A stretch of 64,000 nt of DNA, from the sequence record NZ_CP033968.1; one strand, 5' to 3'. The notes under the pieces were generated by a model. The model worked only from the letters and a program-made list of their open reading frames with translations. It was not told the origin of the DNA and ran no database searches. This DNA comes from a plasmid. Of this stretch, positions 19,658 to 44,906 are shown in pieces. Position numbers and translations under genes: made by a program. Positions within the stretch are counted from its first letter, which is position 1. Every line of letters starts with the position of its first letter.

Positions 19658-19662
19658 AATAT

Positions 19663-19708
19663 GAGGGTTGGCCGGGATTCGTGTATTTCTCGCCAGAATG
19701 ATCCTAAG
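19663..19708 (+). repeat. Left terminal inverted repeat (46 bp) of the Tn3-family transposon.
   Basis: See the transposon entry. Ends in TAAG on the inner side, as in Tn3-family IRs. Confidence 0.7.
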
Positions 19709-20254
19709 GCGATGATTCAAAAGGGAATTTCCGATCAAGATCGGATTTTGCGGCGTCATGCAGCACGAATCCGTATCAGATCGCCAAGCGCATCGGCGTC
19801 GCCCATTACAGGGCAGGAACGCTACTGAATCAGCAAAGGTGGCTGGTTGGTGCGCTGAGAGGCAGCTGGAGTTGACGAGACAGTCTTTCTGAGAGAGCTA
19901 ACGGAACACGTTGAATCCCATCTACCGGGCTTGCAGAAACGTGGCAACCGAAAAAAATGGAGAGGGGCTATAGAGGGGAGCTCTTCACGGATAGGTTCGG
20001 TTGCCTCGTGGGTCAAAGGTGCGTTTGCCGTTCGCCCCCACATGGAGAACCTTCAACGGCAACAAGTCCTCCAGGTCTTCTGGCGTCATGAATTGTGTCC
20101 ATCAAAATAGTGATGGACACAATCATCTGCCGCCTCCCGACTGGGGGCTACGTTTGGCTAAATTCGCGCTTACGTTGTACGTTTGCGTACGCCTTAGTAC
20201 GGCAGCATCTCCCATCAGTACATTCAACGCGATGCCATGCGCTACAATGCGCGC

Positions 20255-20725
20255 ATGTCACGTGCAACCCTAAGCATCTCGCTTCGGGCTGTGTTGCTGC
20301 TTCTTATCGTGTTGCTGCAGCTGCTGAGCCCACTTCTGCACGGCCATTTCGGAATTCCGAAACAGACTGGCCTGCACGTGCACACCGCGCTTTCTGGCGC
20401 GGTTGATTCTCATTTTCAATCCCTCGGATCTTCCCATCATCGAGCCTCCGCGCATGAGGGGTATGCTCTTGATCGCGAGCTGGCTCTGACGAGCAGGGAA
20501 CCCTTTGAGGTTGATGTAGAGCCCTCGATCGGTCCATCGGATCTCGCCGGATTTCTTTGGGCTGCTGCGGGGCCTGGGTTATCGGCACTCACCTTTCTTC
20601 TGCTGGCAGCGCTTGCCTGTTCAGCCATATCACGCCCAGTCTTTCGGCCAGCACCAATTCGCGCGCGCTGGCGCGATCGCATCAATCGAACGCCTCCAGC
20701 GCAGGCTCCCCCACCGGCCTGCTGA
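20255..20725 (+). CDS. Small His-rich protein with an N-terminal hydrophobic segment. Possibly a metal-handling accessory protein upstream of the RND operon.
   Basis: MSRATLSISLRAVLLLLIVLLQLLSPLLHGHFG... Several His residues. Position immediately 5' of the efflux operon. Confidence 0.35.
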   Translation: MSRATLSISLRAVLLLLIVLLQLLSPLLHGHFGIPKQTGLHVHTALSGAVDSHFQSLGSSHHRASAHEGYALDRELALTSREPFEVDVEPSIGPSDLAGFLWAAAGPGLSALTFLLLAALACSAISRPVFRPAPIRARWRDRINRTPPAQAPPPAC

Positions 20726-21033
20726 TCCTAAGCAGGCGGACGGCACGCGCGTCACGGTGCAGCAGAACACTCGTTGAGTTGATCTGCAACAGCCCCATCA
20801 CGCCCACCGTAGCGATCATGAATTCGTTAGGAGCATTGGCTTCTGACCCATCACGTTCGCTCGACGCCACAAGGCGGTAGCTGCATTGCTATCCGCTGGC
20901 CATCCACTGTTCCTACATTCTTGTTCGCGTCGCCTCGAAGCGCCACGCCGCAGTCGGTGTTCGTGCCGCTTCGGGAGGCGACGCAGTTGGAGGATGACGC
21001 CGACAGCGTTGCCTTCGTGGATTGGAGTCAGGC

Positions 21034-22119
21034 ATGTTTCTCAAACGAATTGTGGTGGTTGGCGCATCGATTGCACTGACCGCATTTCCTGTGCGTTGGG
21101 CTACTGCTCAACCGGCGGCACAGGCAGTGTCTCTGTCGGCCGAACAGGCGCGCGCACTGGGTGTGCGCTTTAGCTCGGTCGCAGCTTCTGGGGGCTTGGA
21201 AGTCGGCACCCACGCACGTGTCGTGTTCAAGCCGGATGCGCAATATGTGGTGGCGGCTCCGTACGCGGGCGTGGTGCCTCGCGCGCTGGTGTCACTGGGG
21301 CAGACCGTCCGCCCGAGTCAACCGCTGGCGAGTTTCCTGAGCCCGCAGCTCTTTGAAGCGAGCCGCGCGCTCACGGAGGCCAACTCGCAGGCGCGTTTGG
21401 CGCAGCAATCGCTCGCCCGCGATAAGGCGCTCTTTGATGACGGCATCATCGCCGGAAGCCGCTGGCAGGCAACGCAGGCGCGGGCCGCTGAGGCCAACGC
21501 CATGGCCATGGCGCGCCGGGCCGAACTGGCTTCCGCAGGTATCGCATTCGCTGGCGCGGGCGGCGAAGCGCAACTGATCGCGAATCATGGCGGCGTGGTG
21601 TCGGAGGTCAACGCTGTTCCGGGGGCGCGAGTTGAAGCGGCCGCGCCGCTTTTCCGGATCGTTGACCCGGCTGCGCTGGAGCTGGACCTGCTGGTTGGCC
21701 GCGATGTGCCCGTGCCAACCATAGGCGACCGCATCGAGATCGTGCCGCGCGGTGCAAGCGGTACGGTCATTGGCGTTGCGCCTTCGGGTGACGGTACGGC
21801 AGGGGTGCGTGTGCGGGCGTCGCTGGAGCGCCGTGGCGATCTGCGCGCCGGCGAGAGCGTCAACGTCACGCTCAAGCTGCGCGGCTCTAACGGCGCGGGC
21901 GCCTCGGGGCTGGTGCGGGTTCCGGCGGCCGCCTTGGCCTACGTGTCCGGCGTTCCGGGCGTGTTTGTCGCCACCGACAAAGGCTTCCGCTTCCAGGAGG
22001 TCGCCGTTGCCAGTACGGATGACGCCGTCGCTGTCCTGCGCGCCAATCTGCCTACAGGGACACGCGTAGCGGTTGCGGGCGTCGGTGCACTCAAGGGCTT
22101 GCTGGCGGGAGAACAGTGA
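21034..22119 (+). CDS. RND efflux periplasmic adaptor (membrane fusion protein, CzcB/ZneB-like).
   Basis: Signal peptide, HlyD-like length and composition. Stop overlaps the start of the RND pump (ATGA). Confidence 0.8.
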   Translation: MFLKRIVVVGASIALTAFPVRWATAQPAAQAVSLSAEQARALGVRFSSVAASGGLEVGTHARVVFKPDAQYVVAAPYAGVVPRALVSLGQTVRPSQPLASFLSPQLFEASRALTEANSQARLAQQSLARDKALFDDGIIAGSRWQATQARAAEANAMAMARRAELASAGIAFAGAGGEAQLIANHGGVVSEVNAVPGARVEAAAPLFRIVDPAALELDLLVGRDVPVPTIGDRIEIVPRGASGTVIGVAPSGDGTAGVRVRASLERRGDLRAGESVNVTLKLRGSNGAGASGLVRVPAAALAYVSGVPGVFVATDKGFRFQEVAVASTDDAVAVLRANLPTGTRVAVAGVGALKGLLAGEQ

Positions 22120-25100
22120 TGCTGCCCCGCCTGATTGAGTTTTCTTTGCGCCAGCGTGTACTGGTGCTGATCGCGGCCGGCGTGCTTGCTGCCGCTGGCG
22201 TCTGGGCTTACCTGAACCTGCCGATTGATGCGTTTCCCGATATCTCGCCGACGCAGGTCAAGGTCGTGCTCAAGGTGCCGGGCATGACGCCGGAAGAAGT
22301 CGAGCAGCGTGTCTCGACACCCATCGAGCAGGAACTGCTCGGCCTTCCGCATAAGACGATCGTGCGCTCGGTGTCCAAATACGGCATCAGCGACGTGACG
22401 GTCGATTTTGAAGAGGGTGTGGACGTCTACTGGGCACGCCAGCAAGTGTCGGAGCGCCTGGCAGGTCTTGCCCGCGACCTGCCGTCGACAGCCGTGGGCG
22501 GCCTAGCGCCGATCACCACGCCGCTGGGCGAGATGTTCATGTTCACCGTGGAGGGCGACGGCTACTCGCTGGCGGAGCGGCGCCGAGTGCTGGACTGGGT
22601 CATCCGGCCGGCGTTGCGCACCGTTCCTGGCGTGGCCGATGTAAACGCATTGGGTGGCGAGGTCCGCAGCTATGAGGTAACGCCCGATCCGGCACGCCTG
22701 CGTGCACGGGGGGTGACGCTGGAGCAGCTGCGCCAGGCGCTGGATGCCAACAATCGCAACGATGGTGCGGGCCGGCTTGATCGCGGTGACGAGCACTGGG
22801 TGGTCCGCGTGGAAGGCGGCGTGCGCGGGCTCGACGATCTGCGAGCGATTGTCGTGGTGCCAGCGCAGAGTCCGGCGTCCAACCCTGCCGTCACCGTGGG
22901 CGATGTGGCCACCGTGCAGCTGGGTGAGGCGACCCGCAACGGCGCTGTCAGCAAGGATGGCAACGGTGAGGTAGTCGAAGGGCTGGTGCTGGGCCTGCGC
23001 GGCAGCGATGCCCGCAAGCTGGTCGAGGCGGTACAGGAACGGTTGGACACGCTTGGCCCTCAACTGCCCAAGGGCATGTCGGCACACGTGTTCTACAACC
23101 GTGGCGAGCTGGTGACACGCGCAGCCAACACGGTGGTGCGTGCGCTGATTGAAGCCAGCGTGTTGGTGGTCATCACGCTGTACCTGTTCCTGGGCGGTGT
23201 GCGGGCGGCGCTGGTGGTGGCGGCCACGCTGCCGCTGTCGATGCTGGCGACCTTCCTGCTGATGCGCTACGTGGGCCTGACCGCCAACCTGATGAGCCTG
23301 GGTGGACTGGCCATTGCTCTGGGCATGCTGGTGGATGCGGCGGTCGTTGTGGTGGAGAACATCGAGACTGCCATGGCGCGTGCCCAAGACCACAAGACCG
23401 ATCCAGCGCTGCGCGGGGCCGTGATCCGTCACGCAGTGGCTACCGTTGCAGTGCCGATGCTCTCCGGCGTTTCCATCATCGCCATCGTGTTCCTGCCGCT
23501 GTTGTCATTGCAGGGGCTGGAGGGCAAGTTGTTCGGGCCGGTGGCGCTGACCATCGTGCTGGCACTGGCCTCGTCTGTGGTGATCGCCTTTACGGTCGTG
23601 CCGGCGTTGGCCTCCATGCTGCTGCTCGCGCATGCGGATGAGGCGCCTTGGCTGATGCGCAAGGTGGCGGGTGGCTTTGCCCGCCTACAGGCCTGGACCA
23701 CGGCGCGCCGCCGCATCGTGTTTGGCGTGGCGGGGGCGGCGCTGGTCGTGGCGGTGGTGCTGTACATGTCAGTCGGCAAGACGTTCATGCCGACCATGGA
23801 CGAAGGCGATCTGATTGTGCAGTTGCAAAAGGCGCCGTCTGTTTCCCTGGCAGCATCGCTGGACCTGGACCAACGCGTGCAGCAAGCGCTGCTCAAAGAG
23901 GTGCCCGAGATCCGCTCCATCGTGGCGCGCTCCGGCTCCGACGACCTGGGCCTGGACCCGATGGGTCTGAATGAGACCGACACCTTCCTGGTGCTCAAGC
24001 CCAAGGACCAGTGGCGCGGCAGCAAGGAGGACATCGCGACAGCCATTCGTCACGTGATGGAGCGCTTCCCCGGCGTGATCTATGGCTTCACGCAGCCGAT
24101 CGAGATGCGCGTGTCGGAGATGCTGACCGGTACGCGCGGGGATATCGCCATCAAGCTCTTCGGCAGCGATCTCGCCGCTATTGACGCGGCCGCACAGGCC
24201 ATTGCTGCCAAGGTGCGCTCCATCCGTGGCGCCGCCGAGGTGATCGCGCCCAGCAACAGTGGTGTGCAGTACCTGAAGGTCTCGCTGGATCGCGCGGCAG
24301 TCGGCCACGCTGGCTTTACCGGAGATGCCCTGCAAACGCAGTTGCGAGCCCTGATCGAAGGTGACCGGATTGGCGTAGTGCCCGAAGGCATTGTGCGTAC
24401 ACCGCTGATTCTGCGCGGCGGAGCGGGCCTGCGCCAAGCGCCGGAGAACCTCACCGGCCTCCTGGTGACGGCGCCAGATGGCAAAACTTGGCCGCTCTCG
24501 TCTCTTGCCCGCATCGAACGCGTGGACGGGCCGGTGCGCATCAACCATGAAGACGGAGCCCGGTTTGCTGTGATCCAGGCCAACGTTGAAGGCCGGGATC
24601 TGGCCGGCTTTGTGCAGGAAGCACAGGGTGCGGTTGGCAGCATCAGCACGCTGCCGAAAGGACTGCGTGTTGTCTGGGGCGGCCAGTTCGAGAATCAGCA
24701 ACGTGCGGCGGCGCGTCTAGCACTGGTCGTGCCGCTGGCCTTGGGCGCCATCTTTCTGCTGCTGATGCTCACGTTCCGCTCGGTGCGGCAGGCGGTGCTG
24801 GTCGTCGCCAACATTCCGTTTGCACTCGTAGGCGGCATCGCCGCGCTGCGGATATCGGGCGAGTACCTGTCGGTGCCGGCCTCCGTCGGCTTTATCGCGC
24901 TGCTCGGGATCGCGGTGCTCAATGGTGTGGTGCTGGTCTCGCACTTCAACACCTTGCTGGAGTCGGGCTCGAGCATGGCGGAAACCGTGCGTGTGGGCGT
25001 GCAAGACCGCCTGCGGCCGGTGCTGATGACAGCCTGCATTACCGCACTGGGGATGATTCCGCTGCTATTGGCGAGCGGGCCAGGGTCGGAGATTCAACGC

Positions 25101-25232
25101 CCGCTGGCGATCGTAGTGTCGGGCGGGTTGCTTTCTTCGACGGCACTGACGCTGCTCCTGCTCCCCTTGCTGTTTGAACGCTTTGGTATGCCCCGGGCCC
25201 GGACGGCCGACGGGCAGGGAGATTTGCAATGA
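22116..25232 (+). CDS. HME-type RND inner-membrane transporter (CzcA/CusA/ZneA family, 1038 aa).
   Basis: 12-TM RND architecture. TM4 region GGLAIALGMLVDAAVVVVEN is typical of heavy-metal-efflux RND pumps. Gene order B-A-C. Confidence 0.9.
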   Translation: MMLPRLIEFSLRQRVLVLIAAGVLAAAGVWAYLNLPIDAFPDISPTQVKVVLKVPGMTPEEVEQRVSTPIEQELLGLPHKTIVRSVSKYGISDVTVDFEEGVDVYWARQQVSERLAGLARDLPSTAVGGLAPITTPLGEMFMFTVEGDGYSLAERRRVLDWVIRPALRTVPGVADVNALGGEVRSYEVTPDPARLRARGVTLEQLRQALDANNRNDGAGRLDRGDEHWVVRVEGGVRGLDDLRAIVVVPAQSPASNPAVTVGDVATVQLGEATRNGAVSKDGNGEVVEGLVLGLRGSDARKLVEAVQERLDTLGPQLPKGMSAHVFYNRGELVTRAANTVVRALIEASVLVVITLYLFLGGVRAALVVAATLPLSMLATFLLMRYVGLTANLMSLGGLAIALGMLVDAAVVVVENIETAMARAQDHKTDPALRGAVIRHAVATVAVPMLSGVSIIAIVFLPLLSLQGLEGKLFGPVALTIVLALASSVVIAFTVVPALASMLLLAHADEAPWLMRKVAGGFARLQAWTTARRRIVFGVAGAALVVAVVLYMSVGKTFMPTMDEGDLIVQLQKAPSVSLAASLDLDQRVQQALLKEVPEIRSIVARSGSDDLGLDPMGLNETDTFLVLKPKDQWRGSKEDIATAIRHVMERFPGVIYGFTQPIEMRVSEMLTGTRGDIAIKLFGSDLAAIDAAAQAIAAKVRSIRGAAEVIAPSNSGVQYLKVSLDRAAVGHAGFTGDALQTQLRALIEGDRIGVVPEGIVRTPLILRGGAGLRQAPENLTGLLVTAPDGKTWPLSSLARIERVDGPVRINHEDGARFAVIQANVEGRDLAGFVQEAQGAVGSISTLPKGLRVVWGGQFENQQRAAARLALVVPLALGAIFLLLMLTFRSVRQAVLVVANIPFALVGGIAALRISGEYLSVPASVGFIALLGIAVLNGVVLVSHFNTLLESGSSMAETVRVGVQDRLRPVLMTACITALGMIPLLLASGPGSEIQRPLAIVVSGGLLSSTALTLLLLPLLFERFGMPRARTADGQGDLQ

Positions 25233-26485
25233 GGTTGAACATGTTTCGCTTCGCATTGGCCGGAGCCGGCGTGATGCTGCTTTGCGGCGCCACCGCCCAA
25301 GCGCAGAACACGCCGGGCTACCTACCCGCTGAGAGCTCGGTGCGTGAAGCGGTTGCGCAATCGCCCGAGGTGATGACGGCCGAAGCCCGGCGCGATGCCA
25401 CGCTGGCCCGTGCCGAAGGCATTCGAGCGGGGACGGCCGAGACTGTGGTGAGAGCGATCGGACAGGGGCGTCAGGTCCGAGATCCGTCTGAGCGACATGC
25501 GGAAGGGCAGATCGCCGTGGAGCGGCCGTTGAGGCTGTGGGGCAAGGCTCAAGCCGATGGCCAGCTTGCTGATGCGGCGGCCGAGGCTGGCCAACTTGCG
25601 GTGAAGGACGCACGCCACGAAGCATCGCGGCAGATCCTCTCGCTGTGGTTTGCTGCTGTGCGGGCTGGGCAAGCACGCCAGGCCGCTCAGGAGAATGCCC
25701 GGGCTGCGGCCGAGTTGGCGACGCTGACGGCCCGCCGGGTCCAGTTGGGTGACGCTTCGCGCTTGGACGGTGAACTGGCAGCAGCGGATCAGGCTCGCAT
25801 GCAAGCCGCACTGGCGACGGCCACTGCAGCCGAACAGGCCGCGCAGGCGGAACTGCAGGCCCGTTTTCCGGGGTTGCCCCGGCCCATGATGGCCGCTGAC
25901 ACCGCGCTGCCCGTGTTGCCGCAGGACCCACCGGAACGATTGCGCACGCAGTACATACAGGACAGCCACGAGTATCGGCTTGCCATGGCGGAAGAGGTGC
26001 AGGCACAGCAGATGGCCAAGCGGGCAGATCTGGAGCGCCGGCCCGATCCCACCGTCGGCATGTTCGTATCGGTGGAGCGTGGTGGTGCGGAACGCATCAT
26101 GGGAGTGAGCGTGGCGATGCCGCTCGGCTCGGCGCATCGCCGTACTGCCGCAGCAGCGGCCGCGGCCGATGCGGAAGCTGCAGCTCGCCGCAGACTCGGT
26201 GCAGAACGACGCCTGGGTGCGGAATTCGACGTGCTCTATCGTGACCTGCAAGGCAAAGGGGGAGCCGCGCAAGCACAGATCGAAGCGACTACGTTACAGA
26301 GACGCGCAGCCGACCGCGCCACCCGCGCGTTTCGCGCCGGCGAGTCCGGCTTGACCGAGCTGTTGGTGGCACGCCGCGGCCTTGCCGACGCAGTGTTGGC
26401 CGAGCGGCTCGCTCGGGTGAACGTACTGGAGGCGGACAGCCGGCTCCAGCTGGATCTGCATCGCATGTGGGATTTCGATGACTGA
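25229..26485 (+). CDS. Outer-membrane factor (TolC/CzcC-like) of the RND efflux system.
   Basis: Signal peptide. Ala/Gln/Arg-rich coiled-coil repeats typical of OMF proteins. Overlaps the pump stop. Confidence 0.8.
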   Translation: MRLNMFRFALAGAGVMLLCGATAQAQNTPGYLPAESSVREAVAQSPEVMTAEARRDATLARAEGIRAGTAETVVRAIGQGRQVRDPSERHAEGQIAVERPLRLWGKAQADGQLADAAAEAGQLAVKDARHEASRQILSLWFAAVRAGQARQAAQENARAAAELATLTARRVQLGDASRLDGELAAADQARMQAALATATAAEQAAQAELQARFPGLPRPMMAADTALPVLPQDPPERLRTQYIQDSHEYRLAMAEEVQAQQMAKRADLERRPDPTVGMFVSVERGGAERIMGVSVAMPLGSAHRRTAAAAAAADAEAAARRRLGAERRLGAEFDVLYRDLQGKGGAAQAQIEATTLQRRAADRATRAFRAGESGLTELLVARRGLADAVLAERLARVNVLEADSRLQLDLHRMWDFDD

Positions 26486-26598
26486 TCTTGAGCAACGCCT
26501 GACATGCCCCATGAATAGATAGCGATAACCATCAACGTGGGTGCGTTCGCAACGACCGAAGCAGCGGCGTACTCCACGTGTCCTAACGTAGATGAATC

Positions 26599-27525
26599 AT
26601 GCGACATCCCGAAGACCTCGATCTCAAAATCGACCTGGATACCGAAGACAGTGCGACCAAGCAGGCAGCCGCACGGCGCAGCACGCTGGTGAGCGTGGGC
26701 GTCAACCTGAGCTTGACCGTTGCACAAGTCGTGGCGGGCATCCTGGCCGGCTCCCAGGCGTTGGTGGCCGATGCCATCCACTCGTTGTCCGATTTGATCT
26801 CGGACTTCGTTGTGCTGTTTGCCAGCCACCACAGCCAGAAAGGGCCGGATGCAACTCACCACTATGGCCATCAGCGCTTCGAGAACGCCGCGTCGCTAGT
26901 GCTCGGATTGCTGTTGCTGGCCGTCGGCGTCGGCATGCTTTGGAATGCAGTAGTGAAGCTGGAGCACCCCGAGGCCATTCAGCCAGTCAAGCTCATCGGC
27001 CTGTGGGTCGCTCTCGGGGCGCTGGCGGCAAAGGAGCTGCTGTTCCGCTACATGCTGGCCGTTGCCGAGCGTGTGCGCTCCAGCATGCTGGTCGCCAACG
27101 CATGGCATGCACGCTCGGACGCCGCCTCGTCGCTGGTGGTGGCGCTCGGCATTGTGGGCAATGTGTTCGGCTACCGCCTGCTTGATCCTGTAGCGGCTCT
27201 GATCGTCGGCCTGATGGTGACGCGCATGGGTTGGCAGTTCGGGTGGGAGGCGCTGCACGATCTCATGGACCGTGCCGTCGACCAGGAAACCGTTGAGGCG
27301 ATCCACCAAACGATGCTGGAAACGCCCGGCGTGCACGGCGTACACGACGTCAAGACCCGCCGCATGGGCGACATGATCCTGGTCGATGTCCACCTGGAAG
27401 TCGATGCGCGTGCCAACGTGAGACAAGGCCACGACATTGCATTGGAAGCGCGGCGCCGCGTCATGCTGCGCCGCGATGTGCTCAACGTAATGACCCACGT
27501 GGACCCTGTGGAGGCGCCAACCTAA
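26599..27525 (+). CDS. Cation diffusion facilitator family divalent-metal efflux transporter (CzcD/FieF/DmeF-like).
   Basis: HSLSD motif in TM2, six TMs, His-rich C-terminal domain. Confidence 0.85.
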   Translation: MRHPEDLDLKIDLDTEDSATKQAAARRSTLVSVGVNLSLTVAQVVAGILAGSQALVADAIHSLSDLISDFVVLFASHHSQKGPDATHHYGHQRFENAASLVLGLLLLAVGVGMLWNAVVKLEHPEAIQPVKLIGLWVALGALAAKELLFRYMLAVAERVRSSMLVANAWHARSDAASSLVVALGIVGNVFGYRLLDPVAALIVGLMVTRMGWQFGWEALHDLMDRAVDQETVEAIHQTMLETPGVHGVHDVKTRRMGDMILVDVHLEVDARANVRQGHDIALEARRRVMLRRDVLNVMTHVDPVEAPT

Positions 27526-27670
27526 ACGCGAGGGAGGGCAGTTTTTTGATCTGCGACAACTGTTTTCCGTATCGCGGCGGCGATCGATCAGAAGTCGCTG
27601 CTCCGTAACGGGGCATGCGAGTACATAGATGTTGTACTGCGCAGCCATGATTCACACACTCCAATTTCTA

Positions 27671-28204
27671 GGTGGTTTTATGCGCTCTGAACAGAAGTAC
27701 TCCCTTGCCATGCGATCCCTGCATTGGCTGGTATTCCTGGCCGTCACGATTGCCGTGGTGGCGATCGAGATCCACGACTTTTTTCCCAAAGGCAGCACCG
27801 CGCGCACCGCGGCATTTGCGGTTCATCAGACCGCGGGGCTGTCCGTGCTCGCGTTGATGGTGCTGCGTTTATTTGTCCGCTGGGGAACCCAGCCGCCGGC
27901 ACCGGTCCCTGGCCCACAACTGCTGCAGCGTGCAGCATGCCTCACGCATGGCGTGCTCTACCTGTTGATGGTCGGGATGCCCATTCTTGGCGTGCTGGCG
28001 CTGGCCTGGGGTGGTAAGCCGATTCAGCCGTTCGGGCTGACTTTGACGCTCCCCCTTTTGCAGGACAAGAGCTTGGCGAGCCTCAGCAAGGAGGTGCATG
28101 AGTCAGGTGCCACGCTCGTGTACATCTTTGTTGGGCTGCATGCGGCCGCAGCGCTCTGGCATGAGTTCATGCTGAAAGACCGATTGTTGCGTCGCATGAT
28201 CTAG
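27671..28204 (+). CDS. Cytochrome b561 family protein (CybB-like).
   Basis: ~177 aa, four TMs with conserved His (LHWLVF..., HQTAG..., HGVLY..., LHAAAALWHE). Internal start of track ORF 27629..28204. Confidence 0.75.
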   Translation, partial: GGFMRSEQKYSLAMRSLHWLVFLAVTIAVVAIEIHDFFPKGSTARTAAFAVHQTAGLSVLALMVLRLFVRWGTQPPAPVPGPQLLQRAACLTHGVLYLLMVGMPILGVLALAWGGKPIQPFGLTLTLPLLQDKSLASLSKEVHESGATLVYIFVGLHAAAALWHEFMLKDRLLRRMI

Positions 28205-28251
28205 CGCAGCAAACGGTTCTTCCAGGTCGCTATTCGTGCAGGCCCATCGTT

Positions 28252-28416
28252 CATGGAATCCGGCTTCCGTCATCTCAATATAGCGCTGCTCGCTGTCTCG
28301 GCCGCGACGCTGGCGGCCGGATTGTTGGCGCGCTACCTGCGGGCCGACCAAGATAAGCCGACCCGCTATCATAAGCCTCTCGGTGATGAAGGCGGCGCTT
28401 GTTATTTCGTTTGGTA
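28252..28416 (+). CDS. Possible small membrane protein (54 aa).
   Basis: ATG-initiated ORF MESGFRHLNIALLAVSAATLAAGLLARYLRAD... with high GC3. Below the track cut-off. Weak RBS. Confidence 0.25.
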
Positions 28417-33529: not shown

Positions 33530-33760
33530 GGTTGTCTCTCAGAGCACAGCGAACGTTGAGCGTTTAGCGTCCGCCGCCTTTGACAATCATGCGACGCGGA
33601 AGGAAGAGATGAATTCGTGCCAGTTTAAGCCGCTCAAAACTTGGGCTGGGAGCCCAGGCGGCGATGCGCGCCCGTGATGATTCTGCCATTGGTCCGAACC
33701 AAACGCAAACGCAGTCACGAAGATGGCAACGATGGTCTGCCCTCGGGCGGATCTAAACGA

Positions 33761-36724: not shown

Positions 36725-37267
36725 TCATCGCTCCTGGCTGGATGACGCCATGCGCTCGGGATAGAACTTGGCGGCGCACGCCTTGTCCGCCATGCAAGCG
36801 TCTTCTGGATACTTCAGTCCGCCTGGAAATTTGGGATTGAGAGGCGTATAGCGCGAAGCAATGGCTCTTATCTTCTTGCCTGGGTAAAACGCTAGCCAAA
36901 GCGAACTTGGATCGCCGTCAGGATACGGCTCGACGGGGACCTGTGCCTTGTATGTCGCATCATGGTCCTTCCGGTAGAGCGTGTCGTCCTGCCATTCAAC
37001 TTCTACTGTAAGACCTGGATGCCACTTGCGTGGCACACCGATTGCCCCTGCAACACCAAAACCCCCTGCATGGCGCTTCTCACTTCCTACCCAAACGCCG
37101 TTTACATAAACGATGTCGAGTCCCTCATCCATGTAGTTGAGCACTCGGACCTCAAGGCCGAGGTCTTCATCTTGCTGGGCAGCATTCGCCTGCTCCGCAG
37201 GCTTGCAGCCGGCGCTGAGCGTGGCCAACACCACCAACACGAGTGCCATCCATGTTCGAATTTTCAT
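36725..37267 (-). CDS. DUF3304-like lipoprotein, a putative Tli1-type immunity protein.
   Basis: Lipobox LATLSAGC. ~180 aa periplasmic protein located between the adaptor and the effector. Confidence 0.5.
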   Translation of the reverse strand: MKIRTWMALVLVVLATLSAGCKPAEQANAAQQDEDLGLEVRVLNYMDEGLDIVYVNGVWVGSEKRHAGGFGVAGAIGVPRKWHPGLTVEVEWQDDTLYRKDHDATYKAQVPVEPYPDGDPSSLWLAFYPGKKIRAIASRYTPLNPKFPGGLKYPEDACMADKACAAKFYPERMASSSQER

Positions 37268-38115
37268 GACTGTTCCGTCGTTTCTTGCGACTGCAGCAAA
37301 CCAGCTTCACTCAATGCACCGGCGACTACTCGAAAAACCACTGCGTCATGCGCGCCCGCGTTGAACTCGGGGCTATCCAGCGCCATCCGAATGCAGCTAT
37401 GCGCCTGAGATGGTGTACCTGTTAGTTCTCCCCACCAATGCACGTTCGTCTGAATGAGTCTCAGCAGGCCATCCGGGCGAGCCAGCGCATCAAGACGATC
37501 CATCTGCTCCCGACTGAAGACATAGGGTTCGTCAGTCCGGTCGGCTGAAGCATCGTCAGGGTGACCGACAGCCTGCAACCTGCCATCGCGTCGGAAGTAC
37601 CACCACCGCAACCCATTCAGGAAGCGCTCACGCTGCGCGTCATCAAACACCTGCAGCAGCGCATCCAACGAGCGGGTATCCGCGAAGCGGATCAGGAACG
37701 CCTTCCCCTCATGGTCCACAGCTTCCATCTGGTCCTGGAGGTGCGCGACTGGATCAAGAGCCGACGCGATGCGATGCAAGAAGCTCAGCATCGGCTTGCC
37801 CGAAGTCTCATTCAGAACGAACTCAAGGAACGTACGCCGTTCGGATTCTTCAACCGGTATGCGGACCACGGAGGGGGCGATTTCTGCCAAGCCGGGCCCG
37901 TCATAGCGCCCCTCGTAGAGTGACTGCGGATGCAAGCCCGGAAACCGCGAGCGTAGCCGCTGCGCGAAACCGGTATCGAACGCGTTGTCGACCAAGGCAT
38001 ACACGTTCGCCTCCGGCAATGCGCCAAAAAGTTGTGCCAGAGCGCTATCCGGGAAATCGTTCACCCAAGCAGGTTCATCCGAGCGTCTGCGTTGAATCTG
38101 GAAACGGGTTGCCAT
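37264..38115 (-). CDS. DUF4123-family T6SS effector adaptor or chaperone.
   Basis: YALVDNAFD motif. Immediately downstream of vgrG. Track ORF 37264..38205 overlaps the vgrG 3' end, so an internal start was chosen. Confidence 0.6.
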   Translation of the reverse strand: MATRFQIQRRRSDEPAWVNDFPDSALAQLFGALPEANVYALVDNAFDTGFAQRLRSRFPGLHPQSLYEGRYDGPGLAEIAPSVVRIPVEESERRTFLEFVLNETSGKPMLSFLHRIASALDPVAHLQDQMEAVDHEGKAFLIRFADTRSLDALLQVFDDAQRERFLNGLRWWYFRRDGRLQAVGHPDDASADRTDEPYVFSREQMDRLDALARPDGLLRLIQTNVHWWGELTGTPSQAHSCIRMALDSPEFNAGAHDAVVFRVVAGALSEAGLLQSQETTEQS

Positions 38116-38143
38116 GGTGCCAATGACCTCGATGTCTGCTAAA

Positions 38144-41020
38144 TCAGCCGTTCCTGCTACCGAGCGAATGACCGCCAGCCATTGCGCGCAACATGCATTC
38201 GACACAGATGCTCTGTGGAAACGCCGGCAACGGATACGACTGGTTCACCGGCCCATCAAAGGTGCGCTGCGCGGCCTTGTAGGTAATCGGCCCGGAGCAC
38301 TCGACGGTGATGTTGCCGTCCTCCAGCGTAATGGCTGCACCGGCCGCCGTCGCCAGGCGAATCCGCTTGGCCGCCGCAAAATCCACGTTCATGTTGGCCG
38401 ACACTAATTTCAGGTCATCCTTGGCCATGAGCTTCAGCGTGTCGTGCTGCGCCTGAACGTCGATGTTGCCCTGGCCGGCGGTCAGTTGCAGGCCGATGTT
38501 GTTGTCACCCGCCTTGGACAGGCCCGCCGCCACGCCGATCGCTTGCCCAGCGTGCATGCGCGCCTGTTTGCCGACGGCGATGTTGGTGTCCTGGCCGCTG
38601 CCCAGGGCGATGCTCTCGCCGTTGGCCAACTGCAGATCCTGACCGGCCACCATGACCAACCCGGCGCGGCCGTTCGCATGCACCATCGCCTCGCCCTGGT
38701 GTGGCACCTTGCCCGGCGTGCTGGTGTTGCCGGCGCTGGCATCCTGCTTCGCCGCATCGAGCGCCTTGCCGTCCACCATGCCGGCGGCGGCCTTCTCCTG
38801 CTTGGCCAGCGGCGCATTCTCGTCCTTCGCCGACGACAGGCCAGCGGTCTGATGGGTGACGGCCCCTTGGCCCAGCGATTGGGTGAGCGCCTTGGCCTGC
38901 TTGATGAGGGCAATGCCGGCGGCGTTGTCGCCTGTGGGCACAGCTTTGCCGCTGGCGGCGTCGCGGTAGGTGGTCAGCAGCAGTCCGGCCTGGCCGCGCA
39001 CGGCGGCGTGGCCGTCGGTGCGCAGCTCGAAGCCCTGACCACGGAAGCTGCCGCGCCGGTTGTCCTGTTGGTGAACGAGGTGGCCAAGGTTGATCTGGCT
39101 GTGTAGCTGCGTGGTGGCAAGCTGCGTGCGCAACTGACCATCGCTGTCATCGAAGACGAGCTGGTTGTAGCCGCTGCCGCCGTGTTCGGCGCTCTTGAAG
39201 CCGGTGTGCGCAGCAGCGTTGCGGTGTCCGTCCGCGTCGGTGCCCATGCCGTGCCAGGCGGGGCTGTGGCCGCCCGCCACGTTACCCTGGGCGCTCGGGG
39301 CCGTATCGCTGCCTTGTTTGTAGAGTGCGGCCGTGTCCATTTGAGCTGCGGTTTGGCCGCCGGGCGTCGGCGCAACGCCGGCCTCGCCCTGACCGTTGTA
39401 GAGGGCACCAATGACGACCGGCTGGTCGACATCGTCTTCGCTGAACTTGACGAGCACTTCCTGCCCAATGCGCGGCAGCCATTGCCAGCCCATGCCGGAA
39501 CCGGCCTGCCGCTGCGCGACGCGTACCCAGCGGCTGCTTCGGTCATCTGCACGCTCGCCTTGTTGCCAGGGAAAGCGCACGCGGATTTCACCTGCGGGGC
39601 TGGCATGGTGCTCGCCGTCTCCGCCGGCTTGGGTCTGGCCGTCCGGGCCGACCACGATGGCGCTGTGTACGCCTTGCGCGGTGGGCGCCGCGTAGAGACG
39701 GCCGCAATCGGGTTCAGTCACGGCCGGGCGCCAGGGCCGGCGTGCGTCGCCGGCGCGGAAGACGCCAGCGTAACCGTGCGCGCGTGCTGCTTTGAGCAGA
39801 TCGCCAGTCGGCGTGCTGCGTTCGACGGGGCCTTCTGCTTCTTGGAAACCAAAAACGCCCGGGCCGGATTCCGGCGCGCTGGGCGGCGTATCGAATGCCA
39901 GCGCGGCATCGAGCCCGCCCAAACGCTGGCTGAGCGCGTTGTGCGTATCGACGGTCAGGTTGTTGATGCCGCAGTGCTCGACCAGATCCATCAACAGCGG
40001 ATAGGCGCCTTCCACGTCTTGCGGCAGGTGCGGGCAATCCACCACCTGCAGACGCGTACCGCTGCGCAGCGTGCGCACCGTGCCTCGCCCCGAGAACAGC
40101 AGTGCGCGCGCCTCCAGGCTTTCCATGACCTGCTCGGCAATGCGCTGGGCATTGGCGGAATCCGGCGCCAGCGACGGGCTGATGGACAGATACGCGTCGG
40201 GGCTGCCGGCGCTGGTGGCAAAGCGCGCGGGCGCATGGGCACGCACGCTGTGCTTGCCTTCCGGGTCCCACGCGGCCACGGCAACGCCGCCGGCAGTTGT
40301 GCGGGTGTGGCAGGCCAGTTGCTGGATGGCGTCGCGCTCTTCCAGGCTGTGCGCGCGGTGGAAGCGGATGCCGCCGGCCGCAGCCGACTCCGTGTCTTCC
40401 GGCAGCTGCGTGCTGTCGGCAAAGATCACCAGCGTGTGGCCGCCGTGCGCCTGGTCGTCTTCCACCGTGGTGAAGCCGAGCCCCGCCTCGGCGAGAAGGC
40501 GTGTGACGAAGTGGTAGTCCGTCTCGCGAAACTGCGCGATGTGCGCGCGTGTACCGAAATCGCTCATGCGTGCTTCGGCACCGGCCGCGTAGCGCCACGA
40601 GGCGTACGGCTCGTACGGCGACAGCATCTGCTCAATGATGTCAGCGAGCGGCCGATTCTGGAACACCTGGCTGTGGCGCTGCTGCGTGGTCAGCCAGAAC
40701 CATGGCACCACCGTCAGGCGATAGCGCGTGAGGCTGCCGTCCGCGCCGAGCTTCTCAGCCAGGCGGATCAGGCCCGTGCGCTTGGTCTGCGTACCATCGG
40801 CCAGCGTCGTGACCAGCGTGACCCGCTGGCCCAGCAATGATTTGAGCGCGATGCGCGCATTGGCGCTGACGGCCACCACGCGCCATTCGAACAGTTCGGA
40901 CAGTGCCTCGCGACCGAGCCAGGCTTCCACCGCCAGATCCGCAAGCGGCCCGTCGCCTTCCAGCGTGTACAGGCGGCGTGTGGGGGCGAAGAGGTTCTGA
41001 AGAAGGGTTGTGACTTCCAT
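38144..41020 (-). CDS. vgrG: T6SS spike protein VgrG (958 aa).
   Basis: gp27/gp5-like architecture. Its C-terminal half has Gly-rich beta-helix-like repeats. Confidence 0.9.
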   Translation of the reverse strand: MEVTTLLQNLFAPTRRLYTLEGDGPLADLAVEAWLGREALSELFEWRVVAVSANARIALKSLLGQRVTLVTTLADGTQTKRTGLIRLAEKLGADGSLTRYRLTVVPWFWLTTQQRHSQVFQNRPLADIIEQMLSPYEPYASWRYAAGAEARMSDFGTRAHIAQFRETDYHFVTRLLAEAGLGFTTVEDDQAHGGHTLVIFADSTQLPEDTESAAAGGIRFHRAHSLEERDAIQQLACHTRTTAGGVAVAAWDPEGKHSVRAHAPARFATSAGSPDAYLSISPSLAPDSANAQRIAEQVMESLEARALLFSGRGTVRTLRSGTRLQVVDCPHLPQDVEGAYPLLMDLVEHCGINNLTVDTHNALSQRLGGLDAALAFDTPPSAPESGPGVFGFQEAEGPVERSTPTGDLLKAARAHGYAGVFRAGDARRPWRPAVTEPDCGRLYAAPTAQGVHSAIVVGPDGQTQAGGDGEHHASPAGEIRVRFPWQQGERADDRSSRWVRVAQRQAGSGMGWQWLPRIGQEVLVKFSEDDVDQPVVIGALYNGQGEAGVAPTPGGQTAAQMDTAALYKQGSDTAPSAQGNVAGGHSPAWHGMGTDADGHRNAAAHTGFKSAEHGGSGYNQLVFDDSDGQLRTQLATTQLHSQINLGHLVHQQDNRRGSFRGQGFELRTDGHAAVRGQAGLLLTTYRDAASGKAVPTGDNAAGIALIKQAKALTQSLGQGAVTHQTAGLSSAKDENAPLAKQEKAAAGMVDGKALDAAKQDASAGNTSTPGKVPHQGEAMVHANGRAGLVMVAGQDLQLANGESIALGSGQDTNIAVGKQARMHAGQAIGVAAGLSKAGDNNIGLQLTAGQGNIDVQAQHDTLKLMAKDDLKLVSANMNVDFAAAKRIRLATAAGAAITLEDGNITVECSGPITYKAAQRTFDGPVNQSYPLPAFPQSICVECMLRAMAGGHSLGSRNG

Positions 41021-41035: not shown

Positions 41036-41530
41036 TTACAGGTGCAATGTCCAACCATCCACCGGCGGCTGCACGCGCGCAGGATCTGGGCGGGGGGATT
41101 TGTTTTCGAGAAGTTCGGTAATGGCATCGAACGCTGCTAGGCGCGCAGCCTCATCAGAGGCATAGCCCGTTTCTGCCCGACAGATTTCGGTTTGCCGGAT
41201 GGGGCGAATTTCGTAACGCCATCCGTTCTCCTGCCGCCACACCGTGGTCACATAGCCATCGGCCGGAAGCGACATGGGGCCATCGAAACTGCCGCCGCGC
41301 TTCCATGCGCGGGTCAGCCATAAGAGGCGCTTGGTCGCCCGGCTGCGCGGCGGCGGCTTCGGCTCGCTCTGTTGCGGTTTCACCCGCAACTCGCGGGAAC
41401 AGTCTTCGTCGACGCGCAGCACGCCGTGGTAGTTGTGATGACGTAATACGTGCACCGGCCCCGTGAACACGCCACGGCATCGGTCACACGTGCCGACACC
41501 GGCGTCGCCCTCGTCGGCAGCGACGCGAAT
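41036..41530 (-). CDS. Hypothetical protein upstream of vgrG with a Cys/His cluster (CDRCRG...HVLRHHNYH...DEDC). Start uncertain.
   Basis: High GC3 only in the 3' two-thirds of track ORF 41036..41656. Confidence 0.35.
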   Translation of the reverse strand: MRVAADEGDAGVGTCDRCRGVFTGPVHVLRHHNYHGVLRVDEDCSRELRVKPQQSEPKPPPRSRATKRLLWLTRAWKRGGSFDGPMSLPADGYVTTVWRQENGWRYEIRPIRQTEICRAETGYASDEAARLAAFDAITELLENKSPRPDPARVQPPVDGWTLHL

Positions 41531-41833
41531 CCACCCATCGCGCGGCAAGCCGGCCTTGATCCATCGGCCTTGCTCCCAGACAGTGGGCGGTCGGGTTCCG
41601 CGGGCTTTGCGGGGTGACCTGATTGACCTCATCGACGACCAGCACGGGTTGACCAAAACCCGGGATGGTAGAGCGGCTGTGGCCCGTTATCGCTGAAAAA
41701 TATCGAAATCAGACTTAAAAAGAACTGTCCACCAGACCCGATGCTGGCATTGCTTGCATGCGCGCTGACACGGTTTTCAGCCCGAGGCGGGGCCGATATC
41801 GCACCGGTCAGCCCTTATGATGCGTAGCCTGGC

Positions 41834-44800
41834 GTGACGAGACTCAAGACGCAAACATTCTCGGCGGTTGAGACGATGCAGCAGATCCATGACACGGCCT
41901 ACCCAATGCTGCCGGCCGAACTGGGGGAAACGGAACTGGCCACGGTGTTCACCCCGAGCCCGGCCGAAATCCGCTTTGTTGCCGACCAGTATCGGCAAGC
42001 GCCCACGCGCGCGCTGATCCTCGTCCAGCTCAAGCTGTACCAGCGGCTGGGCTACTGCCCGCCAGTTTCGGGCGTTCCGACGGCCATCGTGCATCACGTG
42101 TGTTCGGTGCTGCGCATCCGCCCACTGCTGCGCAGCGTGCTGGCACGATACGACCGTTCAGGAAGCAAATCCCGCCACCAAAAGCTCCTGCGCGACTTTA
42201 TCGGCATTCGCACCACGGACGCGCAGACACACGCGTGGCTTGCCGATGTGGCCGCGCACGCGGCGCGCATCAAAACGGAACTGCCTGACATCATCAACGT
42301 CCTGATCGAGGAGCTGATCCGGCACCGCTATGAATTGCCGCCGCTGGCCGCGCTGACCAGGATCGCTGCCCACGCCCGCAGTCAGGTCAACGAAACCATC
42401 TACCGCACGATCGTCGAGGCGCTGGGGCCCGACCTGATCGTCAGAATCGATGCGCTCTTCGACAACCGTGGCGGGCGCACCGGCTGGGATCAGGTCAAAC
42501 GGGAACCCAAGCGGCCCGCGCCACGGGAGATCGCCGGGTTCCTCAAGCACATCGAGGCGCTGCGTGTCTTGGCTGATGGCATGCCGGTGGCACCGGAGAT
42601 CCTCACCGCGCCAAAGTGCACGCAGTTGGTCACGGAAGCGCGCGCCCTGGATGTCCAGGAAATGCGGTCGCTCAAGCCCACCAAGCGCTATGCGTTGGCT
42701 GTCCTGTTCATCCTTGCGCAGTTGCAAAAAGCACTGGACGACGTGGCCGAGATCTTCATCAAGACGGTGCGCAACCTGGAACATACGGCCGAATTGCGCC
42801 TGCAGCAGTACCAATTAGCGCACGCGGACCAGCTTGAGGCCCTGGTCGGTCAGTTTCGAGACGTGCTCGGTGTGCTGCAGGACGACACGCTGCCGGCGGA
42901 AGCCCGTGTCGCGAAGATGCGCGCGGCGCTGGGCGGCGATCCCGATGGGGTACTGACCCGCTGCAATGAACACATCGCCTACGCGGGAAACCATACGTTT
43001 CCCTTCATGCTGCGTCCGTATCGGAACCTGCGGGCGCTGCTGTTCCAGTGCCTCGATCTGCTATCGCTCAGGGCCAGCTCGCAAGACGATGCGCTCCTGC
43101 GAGCGCTGGACTGGATGCGCAGCTACAGGACCTCGCACCGCGAATACCTGATGCTCAGCGACCGTGACGCGGCCAACCTACCGCTGGGCTGGATACCGGA
43201 CAAGTGGGAGAAGCCGATTTTCCCGAATGGCAAGAGCGGCCGGCTGATGCACCGCAAGTACTTCGAGCTGTGCGTATTCAGCCAAATCATGCGGGAGTTG
43301 AAATCGGGTGACATCTATGTGGAGAACAGTGACCAGTACGACGATCCACGTGTGCACCAGGTGTCGTGGGAGGAGTTCCGGGCGGAACTACCGCGCTACA
43401 GCGAGCTGGTCAATTTCCCGGTCGACGGCAAGGCATTCGTCCAGGCGTTGAAAGAAGAATTGGGTACGCTCGCTGACGCGGTGGACTCTGAGTTCCCTGC
43501 CAACGACCATGTGGAGATCAGCGAACAGGGGCTCATCCTGCATCGGCTGGAGAAAGATCCCGATCCGCCCAACAAGCTGCTGATCGATCAGGCCATCACC
43601 GCGTCGATGCCACCGGTGAGCATTCTGGACATCCTGATCGAGACCGAGCGGTGGCTCGACTTGCACAAGCTGTTCGGTCCGCTGTCGGGGTTCGAAGCCA
43701 AGATCGACGATCCGCGCAAGCGGTTCATCACAACGCTGTTCTGTTATGGCTGCAATCTCGGACCGAGCCAGACCGCGCGCTCGGTGAAGAACCTGAGCCG
43801 CAAGCAGGTCGCCTGGCTGAATCTGCGACACGTCACCGAGGAGCGCCTGGACAAAGCCATCGTGCAGGTCATCAATGCCTACAACCGGTTCGCTTTGCCG
43901 AAGTTCTGGGGTTCCGGCAAGCGGGTGTCGGCCGACGGCACGAAGTGGAACCTCTACGAGCAGAACCTGCTGTCGGAATATCACATCCGGTACGGTGGCT
44001 ATGGCGGCATCGGTTACTACCATGTCTCCGACATGTACATCGCGCTGTTCAGCCACTTCATTCCCTGCGGCGTGCACGAGGCCGTCTACATCCTGGATGG
44101 GTTGCTCAAGAATGCCTCCAGCGTGCAGCCCGACACCGTCCATGGCGACACGCAGGCGCAGAGCGGGCCGGTGTTCGGCTTGGCACATCTACTGGGGATC
44201 AACCTGATGCCGCGCATCCGAAACATCAAGGATCTGGTGTTCTACAAGGCCGACCGGCGCCGGCGCTACAAAAACATCGATTCGCTGTTCCGGGGCACCA
44301 TCGACTGGGCACTGATCGAGCGGCATTTCCCGGACATGCTGCGCGTGGCCATCTCGATTAAGGTCGGCCGTATGACGCCGTCGACGATCCTCCGGCGCCT
44401 CGGCTCCGAGAGCCGCAAGAACAAGCTGTACTTCGCTTTCCGAGAGTTGGGCCGCGTCATCCGTACGATGTTCCTGCTGAAGTACATCAGCAACCCCGAC
44501 ATGCGACGGGCCATCCATGCGGCCACCAACAAGAGCGAGCAGTTCAACGACTACGCGCAGTGGCTGATGTTCGGGGGAGAGGGCGTCATCGCCGAGAACA
44601 TCCGGCACGAGCAGCGCAAGGTCATCAAGTACAACCAACTCGTGGCCAACATGGTCATCCTGTACAACGTGCAGTGGATGTCGCGCAAGCTCAAGGAGCT
44701 TCAGGAGAAGGGGTTGCCGATCGACGCCGAAGTGCTGAAGGTGCTGTCGCCTTACCGGAAGGACCACATCAACCGGTTCGGCGATTACTTGATGGACCTG

Positions 44801-44860
44801 CACAAGAAGGTGCCGCCGCTTGATCCGACGATCGATTTCTCTTTCAAATCAGCCGCTTAG
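41834..44860 (+). CDS. tnpA: Tn3-family transposase TnpA (1008 aa) of the 25-kb transposon.
   Basis: Tn3-family TnpA length and C-terminal DDE region. Its stop codon lies within IR-R (CTTAG). Confidence 0.9.
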   Translation: MTRLKTQTFSAVETMQQIHDTAYPMLPAELGETELATVFTPSPAEIRFVADQYRQAPTRALILVQLKLYQRLGYCPPVSGVPTAIVHHVCSVLRIRPLLRSVLARYDRSGSKSRHQKLLRDFIGIRTTDAQTHAWLADVAAHAARIKTELPDIINVLIEELIRHRYELPPLAALTRIAAHARSQVNETIYRTIVEALGPDLIVRIDALFDNRGGRTGWDQVKREPKRPAPREIAGFLKHIEALRVLADGMPVAPEILTAPKCTQLVTEARALDVQEMRSLKPTKRYALAVLFILAQLQKALDDVAEIFIKTVRNLEHTAELRLQQYQLAHADQLEALVGQFRDVLGVLQDDTLPAEARVAKMRAALGGDPDGVLTRCNEHIAYAGNHTFPFMLRPYRNLRALLFQCLDLLSLRASSQDDALLRALDWMRSYRTSHREYLMLSDRDAANLPLGWIPDKWEKPIFPNGKSGRLMHRKYFELCVFSQIMRELKSGDIYVENSDQYDDPRVHQVSWEEFRAELPRYSELVNFPVDGKAFVQALKEELGTLADAVDSEFPANDHVEISEQGLILHRLEKDPDPPNKLLIDQAITASMPPVSILDILIETERWLDLHKLFGPLSGFEAKIDDPRKRFITTLFCYGCNLGPSQTARSVKNLSRKQVAWLNLRHVTEERLDKAIVQVINAYNRFALPKFWGSGKRVSADGTKWNLYEQNLLSEYHIRYGGYGGIGYYHVSDMYIALFSHFIPCGVHEAVYILDGLLKNASSVQPDTVHGDTQAQSGPVFGLAHLLGINLMPRIRNIKDLVFYKADRRRRYKNIDSLFRGTIDWALIERHFPDMLRVAISIKVGRMTPSTILRRLGSESRKNKLYFAFRELGRVIRTMFLLKYISNPDMRRAIHAATNKSEQFNDYAQWLMFGGEGVIAENIRHEQRKVIKYNQLVANMVILYNVQWMSRKLKELQEKGLPIDAEVLKVLSPYRKDHINRFGDYLMDLHKKVPPLDPTIDFSFKSAA

Positions 44861-44901
44861 ACTCATTCTGGCGGAAATTTTACGAATCCCGGCCGACCCT
44901 C
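44856..44901 (-). repeat. Right terminal inverted repeat (46 bp) of the Tn3-family transposon.
   Basis: See the transposon entry. Confidence 0.7.
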
Positions 44902-44906
44902 AATAT

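Follow-up and report, generated by a model that had tools for sequence, protein, structure and literature searches.

We analysed a 64,000-nt stretch of plasmid record NZ_CP033968.1 (the window, to which all coordinates without another label refer), which belongs to a pMOL30-type conjugative megaplasmid (MPF_F, MOBP). Between positions 19663 and 44901 it holds a transposon copy of 25,239 bp, and comparison with other records makes it very probable that this is one copy of a replicative unit transposon of the Tn3 family with a canonical form of about 26.33 kb. L-numbers (L001, L036, L125-L157) denote the compared loci and records, L001 being plasmid p1 of Cupriavidus metallidurans BS1. The element has two terminal inverted repeats (IRL and IRR), a transposase gene at its right end, and three passenger blocks: a metal-efflux module, a resolution/stability block, and a type VI secretion system (T6SS) island, vgrG-DUF4123-DUF3304-tle1. 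The ends, the transposase and the interrupted open reading frame (ORF) at the target are the following.

19568-19662, minus strand: 3' portion of the interrupted target ORF, which is what is left (122 aa) of a nucleotidyltransferase-fold gene of the GSU2403 family; the ORF resumes at 44907-45180
19658-19662, no strand: target-site duplication AATAT, left copy; a single AATAT is found at empty sites
19663-19708, plus strand: IRL, the left terminal inverted repeat, 46 bp, GAGGGTTGGCCGGGATTCG...CCTAAG
41876-44860, plus strand: TnpA, Tn3-family transposase, 994 aa (1008 aa from the GTG at 41834), with its stop inside IRR
44856-44901, minus strand: IRR, the right terminal inverted repeat, 46 bp
44902-44906, no strand: target-site duplication AATAT, right copy, matching the left one
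44907-45180, minus strand: 5' part of the target ORF, holding an intact AAGTA at 45078-45082, the site that is occupied in BS1 p1

When IRL is compared with the reverse complement of IRR, 38 of the 46 bases are alike, and both sequences begin with GAGGGT and finish with CTAAG. The outer tip is thus GAGGG and not GGGG, the inner end is CTAAG, and the repeats are of the kind expected in the Tn3 family. The first-pass annotation of this DNA had described two 46-bp repeats about 38/46 identical with TAAG innermost, AATAT on both sides, and a tnpA gene ending within the right repeat; the positions and the count were exact, and the stop codon lies at 44858-44860. In a repeat search the pair ranks second by length among the inverted repeats of the window, with a match running on to 77 nt. 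This extension comes from the target, which is palindromic over a short stretch, CTGGCG-CAATATC-CGCCAG. This palindrome (19651-19669 joined to 44895-44913) is situated about 230 bp downstream of a tyrosine-recombinase gene of the plasmid backbone, and may be a site for recombinase action or resolution, or a terminator. The 12-nt core of the repeats, GGCCGGGATTCG, has no third occurrence in the 64-kb window, which leaves no third end near position 41663. The gene that was hit is 645 aa long in pMOL30 as compared to the 122-codon remnant at the target; the target ORF is uninterrupted in L145, L146 and L148, and is annotated in pMOL30 and in plasmid p352-2 of Cupriavidus sp. EM10.

The transposase contains the domains PF01526 (DDE_Tnp_Tn3, E = 5.9e-149 over the full profile) and PF13700 (DUF4158) in Pfam, and scores 716.9 bits against the NCBIfam model NF033527, for which the cutoff is 500. 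The closest named transposase is that of TnXax1, 53% identical over 99% of the length, and the identity to the transposases of Tn3, TnAs1, TnAs3 and ISPa38 is 24-28%. As judged by pairwise identity to TnXax1, TnpA probably belongs to the Tn4651 subgroup. The element thus combines the traits of the Tn3 family: a DDE transposase, inverted repeats, a tnpA stop codon inside one of the repeats, and a 5-bp duplication that is verified by empty sites. A scan of genome contigs with a loose pattern of the ends, GAGGNNNGGCCGGGATTCG, gave no second copy of this element, and most of the 120 stretches that it returned were chance matches; the same scan revealed a family of related ends in Burkholderiales. 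It was also possible to observe, on a 4.5-kb contig of Cupriavidus necator EM36 (L036 98-3511), two repeats of the same family separated by about 3.4 kb, which suggests that minimal members of this lineage, resembling an insertion sequence (IS), exist.

The plasmid p1 of C. metallidurans BS1 (NZ_CP037902.1; 364 kb, conjugative, MPF_F) carries the same element at 99.4-100% identity, with IRL and IRR sequences identical to those of the window. In BS1 p1 the copy is found 175 bp away from the window site, in the opposite orientation and with the duplication AAGTA. BS1 p1 also holds the unbroken target of the window copy, ...TTCTGGCGCAATATCCGCCAGTT..., with a single AATAT, and the window holds the unbroken target of the BS1 copy, ...CCCCAAGTAGGCTG..., at 45078-45082, so that each plasmid is the empty site of the other. 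The first-pass annotation had suggested a search of other genomes for the empty site (19657 joined to 44907) and for copies with other 5-bp duplications. The empty AATAT site, with an intact junction 40-mer, was present in six records: BS1 p1, L145, L146, L148, pMOL30 and EM10 p352-2. L145, L146 and L148 are transposon-free contigs encoding an identical neighbouring recombinase. Two further duplications were seen, AAGTA in BS1 p1 and CTCGA on the chromosome PJEY01000001.1, where the ends are 26,337 bp apart with CTCGA on both sides; this is the third verified pair. The ends thus travel together in both BS1 p1 and PJEY01000001.1, each time with a duplication of their own, which bears out the reading as a single Tn3-family transposon.

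The element is widespread. In public assemblies, 413 indexed blocks contain exactly this 994-aa TnpA, and in all ten of the places listed it adjoins the same vgrG-tle1 module, with ten right flanks that are all different. Look-ups with the cation diffusion facilitator (CDF) and cytochrome b561 proteins gave the canonical architecture and eight further left-flank contexts; the distinct contexts of insertion number at least 12. IRL was identical, with 0 mismatches, in 13 loci (L136-L140, L142-L144, L150, L152, L153, L155-L157), and IRR likewise in L125-L134. L156 and L130 are probably the two sides of one CTGTT insertion, which would make a fourth pair. The 20 junction 5-mers are 63% A+T as compared to 37% in the flanks (p about 1e-7), and AT-rich targets are the usual preference of Tn3-family elements. 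Taken together, the pairs and junctions indicate that the two 46-bp ends and the TnpA that they bracket act as one mobile unit that makes 5-bp duplications at AT-rich targets. By BLAST of the flanks, three of the carriers were placed in non-solanacearum Ralstonia, 83-94% identical to chromosome 2 of R. wenshanensis. Ralstonia is a frequent reagent contaminant, and metagenome counts may be inflated. Two scans of metagenome contigs with specific patterns of the repeats gave no match, though one JGI contig holds the element. The first-pass annotation had called the combination of genes unusual. This stands for the cargo, but the segment is not a one-off, since the 26.3-kb element is widespread and the window holds a decayed copy of it.

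The left part of the copy is occupied by the metal-efflux module, with the pump belonging to the heavy-metal-efflux resistance-nodulation-division (HME-RND) proteins. All genes are on the plus strand.

20174-28338, plus strand: metal-efflux module, 8.2 kb (Pfam)
20237-20725, plus strand: ORF162, in the metal module
21034-22119, plus strand: RND adaptor, HlyD-type (Pfam)
22119-25232, plus strand: ZneA-like HME-RND pump (Pfam ACR_tran, E = 6e-274)
25229-26485, plus strand: outer-membrane factor, OEP (Pfam)
26599-27525, plus strand: CDF transporter, Cation_efflux (Pfam)
27680-28204, plus strand: cytochrome b561 (Pfam)

The nearest solved structure to the pump in a PDB sequence search is ZneA (4k0e, E = 1.8e-184), and a pump of the CusA/CzcA family is found in one operon with its adaptor and outer-membrane factor, the arrangement of an HME-RND system. 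Each part of the earlier description, a ZneBAC-like HME-RND operon, a CDF transporter and a cytochrome b561 within the segment, was borne out by the Pfam and PDB searches. The same 8.2-kb block is present at 98.5% identity, without the transposon ends, in the chromosomal loci L135 and L141 (3576-11741), where it is flanked by Usp/OprB/Nramp genes and by ferritin/catalase (KatG) genes. Since it is found there free of the ends, the block appears to be a captured passenger, and it is likely that L135 and L141 represent the donor-type locus.

Downstream of the metal genes the window copy differs from its relatives.

28425-28670, minus strand: 3' remnant of a KfrA_N / TnpT-like gene, 246 nt, 82 codons, aligning to L001 16757-17002
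28671-31874, minus strand: IS1071, 3204 bp, the terminal repeats being 106 nt long and its tnpA lying at 28814-31741
31875-34078, minus strand: a truncated 84-aa ORF, then four conserved small ORFs (32123-32467, 32460-32813, 32870-33529 and 33761-34078)

IS1071 is complete, as had been noted before, with arms of 106 nt showing 94% complementarity, and it is 99.7-100% identical to annotated IS1071 on many plasmids. It occupies the exact place of L001 17003-21304 (4.3 kb), cutting the KfrA_N gene on one side and truncating the 84-aa ORF on the other, and there is no 5-bp duplication at its junctions, which read TGAAC on one side and CAATC on the other. The small ORFs beside it are called in every sister copy; those in 31875-34078 have no Pfam or NCBIfam match, and no signal peptide was found in any of them. 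In the intact copies there are 4.3 kb extra between the cytochrome b561 gene and the small ORFs downstream of tle1. This block contains a KfrA_N gene on the minus strand, a DUF2807 gene, an RHH/ParE pair (parDE), a DUF6904 gene and a gene for a tyrosine recombinase of 398 aa, and it is kept in BS1 and in at least 10 other loci.

It is a well-supported interpretation that the 4.3-kb block is the putative TnpS/TnpT-type resolution module of the Tn4651 subgroup. The full KfrA_N gene of the intact copies has the KfrA_N domain with E = 9.8e-18, a domain that TnXax1 TnpT also bears, and the tyrosine recombinase shares 36% identity, across 92% of its length, with a protein that carries the NCBI name 'Tn3-like element Tn4401 family resolvase TnpR'. 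A repeat search gave no convincing rst-like repeats in the resolution region of BS1 p1. By eye, the palindromes CAATCA-CTA-TGATTG and AATCA-CAA-TGATT were observed at L001 17960-18015, in the 254-bp intergenic region between KfrA_N and DUF2807, upstream of DUF2807, a region that is deleted in the window; they are candidates for a resolution site or a ParD operator.

It is likely that an adjacent deletion associated with IS1071 removed the 4.3 kb. The first-pass annotation saw no resolvase in the segment, and between the ends of the window copy there is indeed no resolvase gene, only the 246-nt KfrA_N remnant, because IS1071 replaced the resolution module that the sister copies have. On these comparisons the absence appears as a secondary loss in one copy that leaves the family membership unaffected, and the window copy illustrates how such an element decays. 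A second IS1071 copy, independent of this one and 100% identical to it (L154 2424-5627), truncates a further copy of the transposon inside the RND gene. We also considered the tyrosine recombinase at 18255-19430, just outside IRL, for the role of the missing resolvase. This was discarded, since it has no similarity to the transposon's own recombinase and belongs to the conserved backbone of pMOL30, EM10 p352-2 and the transposon-free contigs. Different Tn3-family transposases of 975 aa interrupt further copies of the element (L144, L155, L156).

The right half of the copy, up to tnpA, is the T6SS island, with all genes on the minus strand.

34444-36723, minus strand: Tle1-family T6SS phospholipase effector (DUF2235), with a GFSRG serine motif (Pfam T6SS_Tle1-like_cat)
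36725-37267, minus strand: DUF3304 lipoprotein with the lipobox LSAGC, a candidate Tli1-type immunity protein (Pfam)
37264-38205, minus strand: DUF4123 adaptor/chaperone of the Tla1/Tap/TEC type (Pfam); PGAP and the gene callers start it at 38115
38144-41020, minus strand: VgrG spike, 958 aa (Pfam Phage_GPD, Phage_base_V, T6SS_Vgr, DUF2345)
41036-41548, minus strand: conserved hypothetical ORF of about 170 aa between vgrG and tnpA, called in all sister copies, with no family match in Pfam or NCBIfam

The four T6SS genes, which had been read as a complete vgrG-DUF4123-DUF3304-tle1 island, were confirmed by Pfam, and Tle1 also by its matches to the structures 9j3f (E = 1.9e-174; the GFSRG motif is part of the alignment) and 4o5p, the Tle1 of Pseudomonas aeruginosa (E = 1.6e-46). 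A VgrG, a DUF4123 protein, a Tle1 with a GXSXG motif and a DUF3304 lipoprotein together make up an auxiliary VgrG-Tle1 island. In P. aeruginosa and other species, immunity to Tle1 is provided by DUF3304 lipoproteins (PMC13133936).

The Ralstonia carriers have a T6SS core cluster of the i4b type, and the VgrG of the transposon is 31% identical to the neighbouring chromosomal Ralstonia VgrG. In 2 of the 10 right-flank contexts the element is inserted in or beside such a cluster (two assemblies; L130 13027-22985, L131 13027-22985, L156 1-189). One of these insertions adjoins vgrG-clpV-tssGFE-hcp and splits the resident DUF4123 adaptor gene, with CTGTT on both flanks, and the other adjoins tagF-tssM-PAAR. 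It is conceivable that the element works as a self-mobile 'plug-in weapon' of the T6SS. Each hop would then bring the spike, the adaptor, the immunity protein and the toxin together, and the element would pass to and fro, across Ralstonia and Cupriavidus, between chromosomes and conjugative plasmids and would be preferentially inserted or retained in or beside T6SS loci. We regard this as speculative and rather unlikely. If such targeting or co-regulation were true, it would be a new route for turnover of the effector repertoire, the incoming module replacing the resident one, and the element would be the first of the Tn3 family with T6SS cargo among those found.

The proposed history of the window copy is as follows. 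The copy landed in the nucleotidyltransferase-gene remnant of the pMOL30-type conjugative megaplasmid. Movement would be by copy-in transposition through a cointegrate, which intact copies would resolve with their own recombinase module. The window copy could not resolve its own cointegrates and would need either homologous recombination of the host (RecA) or the resolvase of a sister copy in trans. The island would arm and protect those recipients that already have a compatible T6SS core, by providing a spike, an adaptor, a lipoprotein for immunity and a lipase acting in the periplasm, and the metal pumps would supply an independent selective advantage. The idea in the first-pass annotation that the weaponry spreads by conjugation and then hops by transposition is in agreement with the distribution of the element and with the conjugative backbone.

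There are several points that weigh against this account. The evidence is throughout that of comparative sequence. Two records have both ends with flanking 5-mers that do not match, JGI Ga0136260_100042 (L129/L137) and CBCPKM010000001.1 (L125/L150), and in CBCPKM010000001.1 the ends are 87 kb apart; some copies have thus been rearranged or expanded after insertion. BLASTP of the recombinase and the KfrA_N protein against TnXax1 TnpS and TnpT gave no significant similarity, the Pfam domains being all that they have in common, and the KfrA_N gene is divergent from the recombinase gene with four genes between them and not a short rst region, so it is by inference that the pair is given a resolvase role. 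Finally, no T6SS core genes are present within the 64-kb window, and the presence of a T6SS is strain-variable in C. metallidurans (PMC12481858).

The lack of T6SS core genes in the window and the strain-variable T6SS of C. metallidurans, together with the deleted resolution module and the truncation by IS1071 in L154 as a sign of ongoing erosion, can be taken to mean that the window element has become a decaying relic that no longer moves and is retained for metal resistance alone, with a T6SS island that is inert in a host without a matching T6SS. We find this possible, though on balance unlikely. The TnpA is 100% identical to the widespread allele, both inverted repeats are identical to those of the intact copies, and the T6SS genes, all four of them intact, show 100% identity to those of BS1. 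It is also general knowledge that Tn3-family elements without a resolvase still transpose, forming cointegrates. As the spreading copies have an identical TnpA and identical ends, the window copy is probably still able to transpose by the copy-in/cointegrate route.

Another question is whether the window and BS1 arrangements represent two insertions. The backbones of the two plasmids show 100% identity across a stretch of more than 12 kb, the sites are 175 bp apart, and the copies have opposite orientations, all of which would fit an interconversion by intramolecular rearrangement, either replicative intramolecular transposition or an inversion. The order of the segments makes this improbable. 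With B' and A' as the flanks, Tn as the transposon and X' as the 175 bp between the sites, blastn gives B'-Tn-X'-A' for the window and, on the same strand, B'-X'-Tn(inverted)-A' for BS1, and hence the 175-bp spacer keeps its orientation to both flanks in both plasmids. An intramolecular inversion would give two inverted copies and an inverted spacer, but there is one copy per plasmid. Furthermore, on identical backbones the two copies show a divergence of 0.63% in their left 9 kb, and empty backbones exist. The left 9 kb of the window copy is 100% identical to that of L143 and L144. Since the difference is allelic on backbones that are identical, two independent insertions are the simplest history. 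Two independent insertions 175 bp apart, both in one pseudogene although the plasmid exceeds 300 kb, suggest a regional hot spot or 'safe harbour' for the element.

The reading that the two repeats come from unrelated elements, a solo end at 19663 and a 3.2-kb IS-like element around tnpA, with an accidental match of AATAT, can be rejected: the lineage does have minimal IS-like members such as L036 with ends about 3.4 kb apart, and AATAT is a short AT-rich word, but the window has no third repeat core, both BS1 p1 and PJEY01 have the ends at a distance of about 26.3 kb with a matching 5-bp duplication in each, and a precise empty site with a single AATAT is found in six records. This was also the test set out in the first-pass annotation, and it came out in favour of one transposon.

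Compared with described elements, the machinery is canonical and the cargo is unusual. TnXax1, of the Tn4651 subgroup of the Tn3 family, is known from plasmid pXAC64 of Xanthomonas citri and carries effectors of the type III secretion system (T3SS) as passengers on conjugative plasmids (PMC4337579, PMC7157771). The transposon described here resembles it in having the closest named TnpA, 5-bp duplications, secretion-system effectors as cargo, carriage on conjugative plasmids, and a KfrA_N gene (tnpT in TnXax1, tnpT-like here) divergent from a tyrosine recombinase. TnXax1, however, is about 7 kb, with T3SS effectors and a lytic transglycosylase and with neither a T6SS island nor metal pumps, and its tnpT and tnpS are adjacent and beside tnpA, whereas in the intact copies here the candidate counterparts are separated by DUF2807, parDE and DUF6904 and are found about 10 kb from tnpA. 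The elements of the Tn4651/Tn4401 type share the 46-bp class of inverted repeats and the tyrosine recombinase in place of a serine TnpR, but their cargo is catabolic xyl genes or blaKPC, and the window copy has lost its recombinase.

Toxin-antitoxin (TA) pairs have been found within the resolution modules of 39 Tn3-family elements (Lima-Mendez et al. 2020, PMC7157771), and the intact copies likewise have an RHH/ParE pair within theirs. The only tnpS/tnpT element with a TA pair in that survey is TnHdN1.1, where a PIN_3/RHH_6 pair is situated between tnpS and tnpA (PMC7157771); here, in contrast, the ParE/RHH pair is located between the divergent tnpT-like and recombinase genes, and it is missing from the window copy. 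As for the effector genes, the P. aeruginosa island PA3294-PA3290 (vgrG4a-tla1-tli1b-tli1a-tle1; PMC13133936) has the same gene order and families, VgrG, DUF4123, DUF3304 lipoprotein and Tle1, but it is a fixed, auxiliary cluster of the chromosome, while here the island is a transposon passenger with a single DUF3304 gene.

In the literature, which was what this search covered and not the transposon registries, there was no published description of this transposon or of any Tn3-family element with a VgrG-effector island, and the element is unmentioned in the BS1 genome paper. A survey of transposable elements in Ralstonia, including R. pickettii, R. mannitolilytica and R. insidiosa, lists no Tn3-family elements beyond six small ones, 5.1-8.5 kb in size. 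The transposon is thus apparently new and unnamed.

It is known that effector-immunity modules of the T6SS move horizontally, and the vehicle is usually only inferred from integrases or transposases nearby. In the present case the ends, duplications and empty sites delimit the vehicle to the base pair, and it is found on conjugative megaplasmids and at many chromosomal sites. This extends the idea of TnXax1 and its T3SS effectors to antibacterial weaponry. The link of a weapon to metal efflux also implies that selection by metals, for example in mines and water systems, could co-select weapons used between bacteria.

Other mobile elements were observed on the same backbones. An IS of the IS3 family at 16203-17488, with orfA (HTH_Tnp_1) at 17134-17433 and orfB (rve) at 16244-17137, interrupts an HNH-endonuclease gene and is missing from the otherwise identical backbone of BS1 p1. 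ISRme9 (IS21-like, istA/istB) is found at 9410-12106 and matches copies on pMOL28 and other Cupriavidus plasmids at 99.9-100% identity. In CBCPKM01, the record with mismatched flanks and ends 87 kb apart, the recombinase is followed by mer genes and by another KfrA_N gene. A second Tn3-family element, related to this one, is present in BS1 p1 (L001 38579-42030; inverted repeat GAGGCCTGGCCGGGATTCG...), the tnpA of which has 70-85% nucleotide identity to the tnpA studied here and a phage-integrase gene just upstream. The empty site of this second element corresponds to about position 14300 of the window, which is uninterrupted there.

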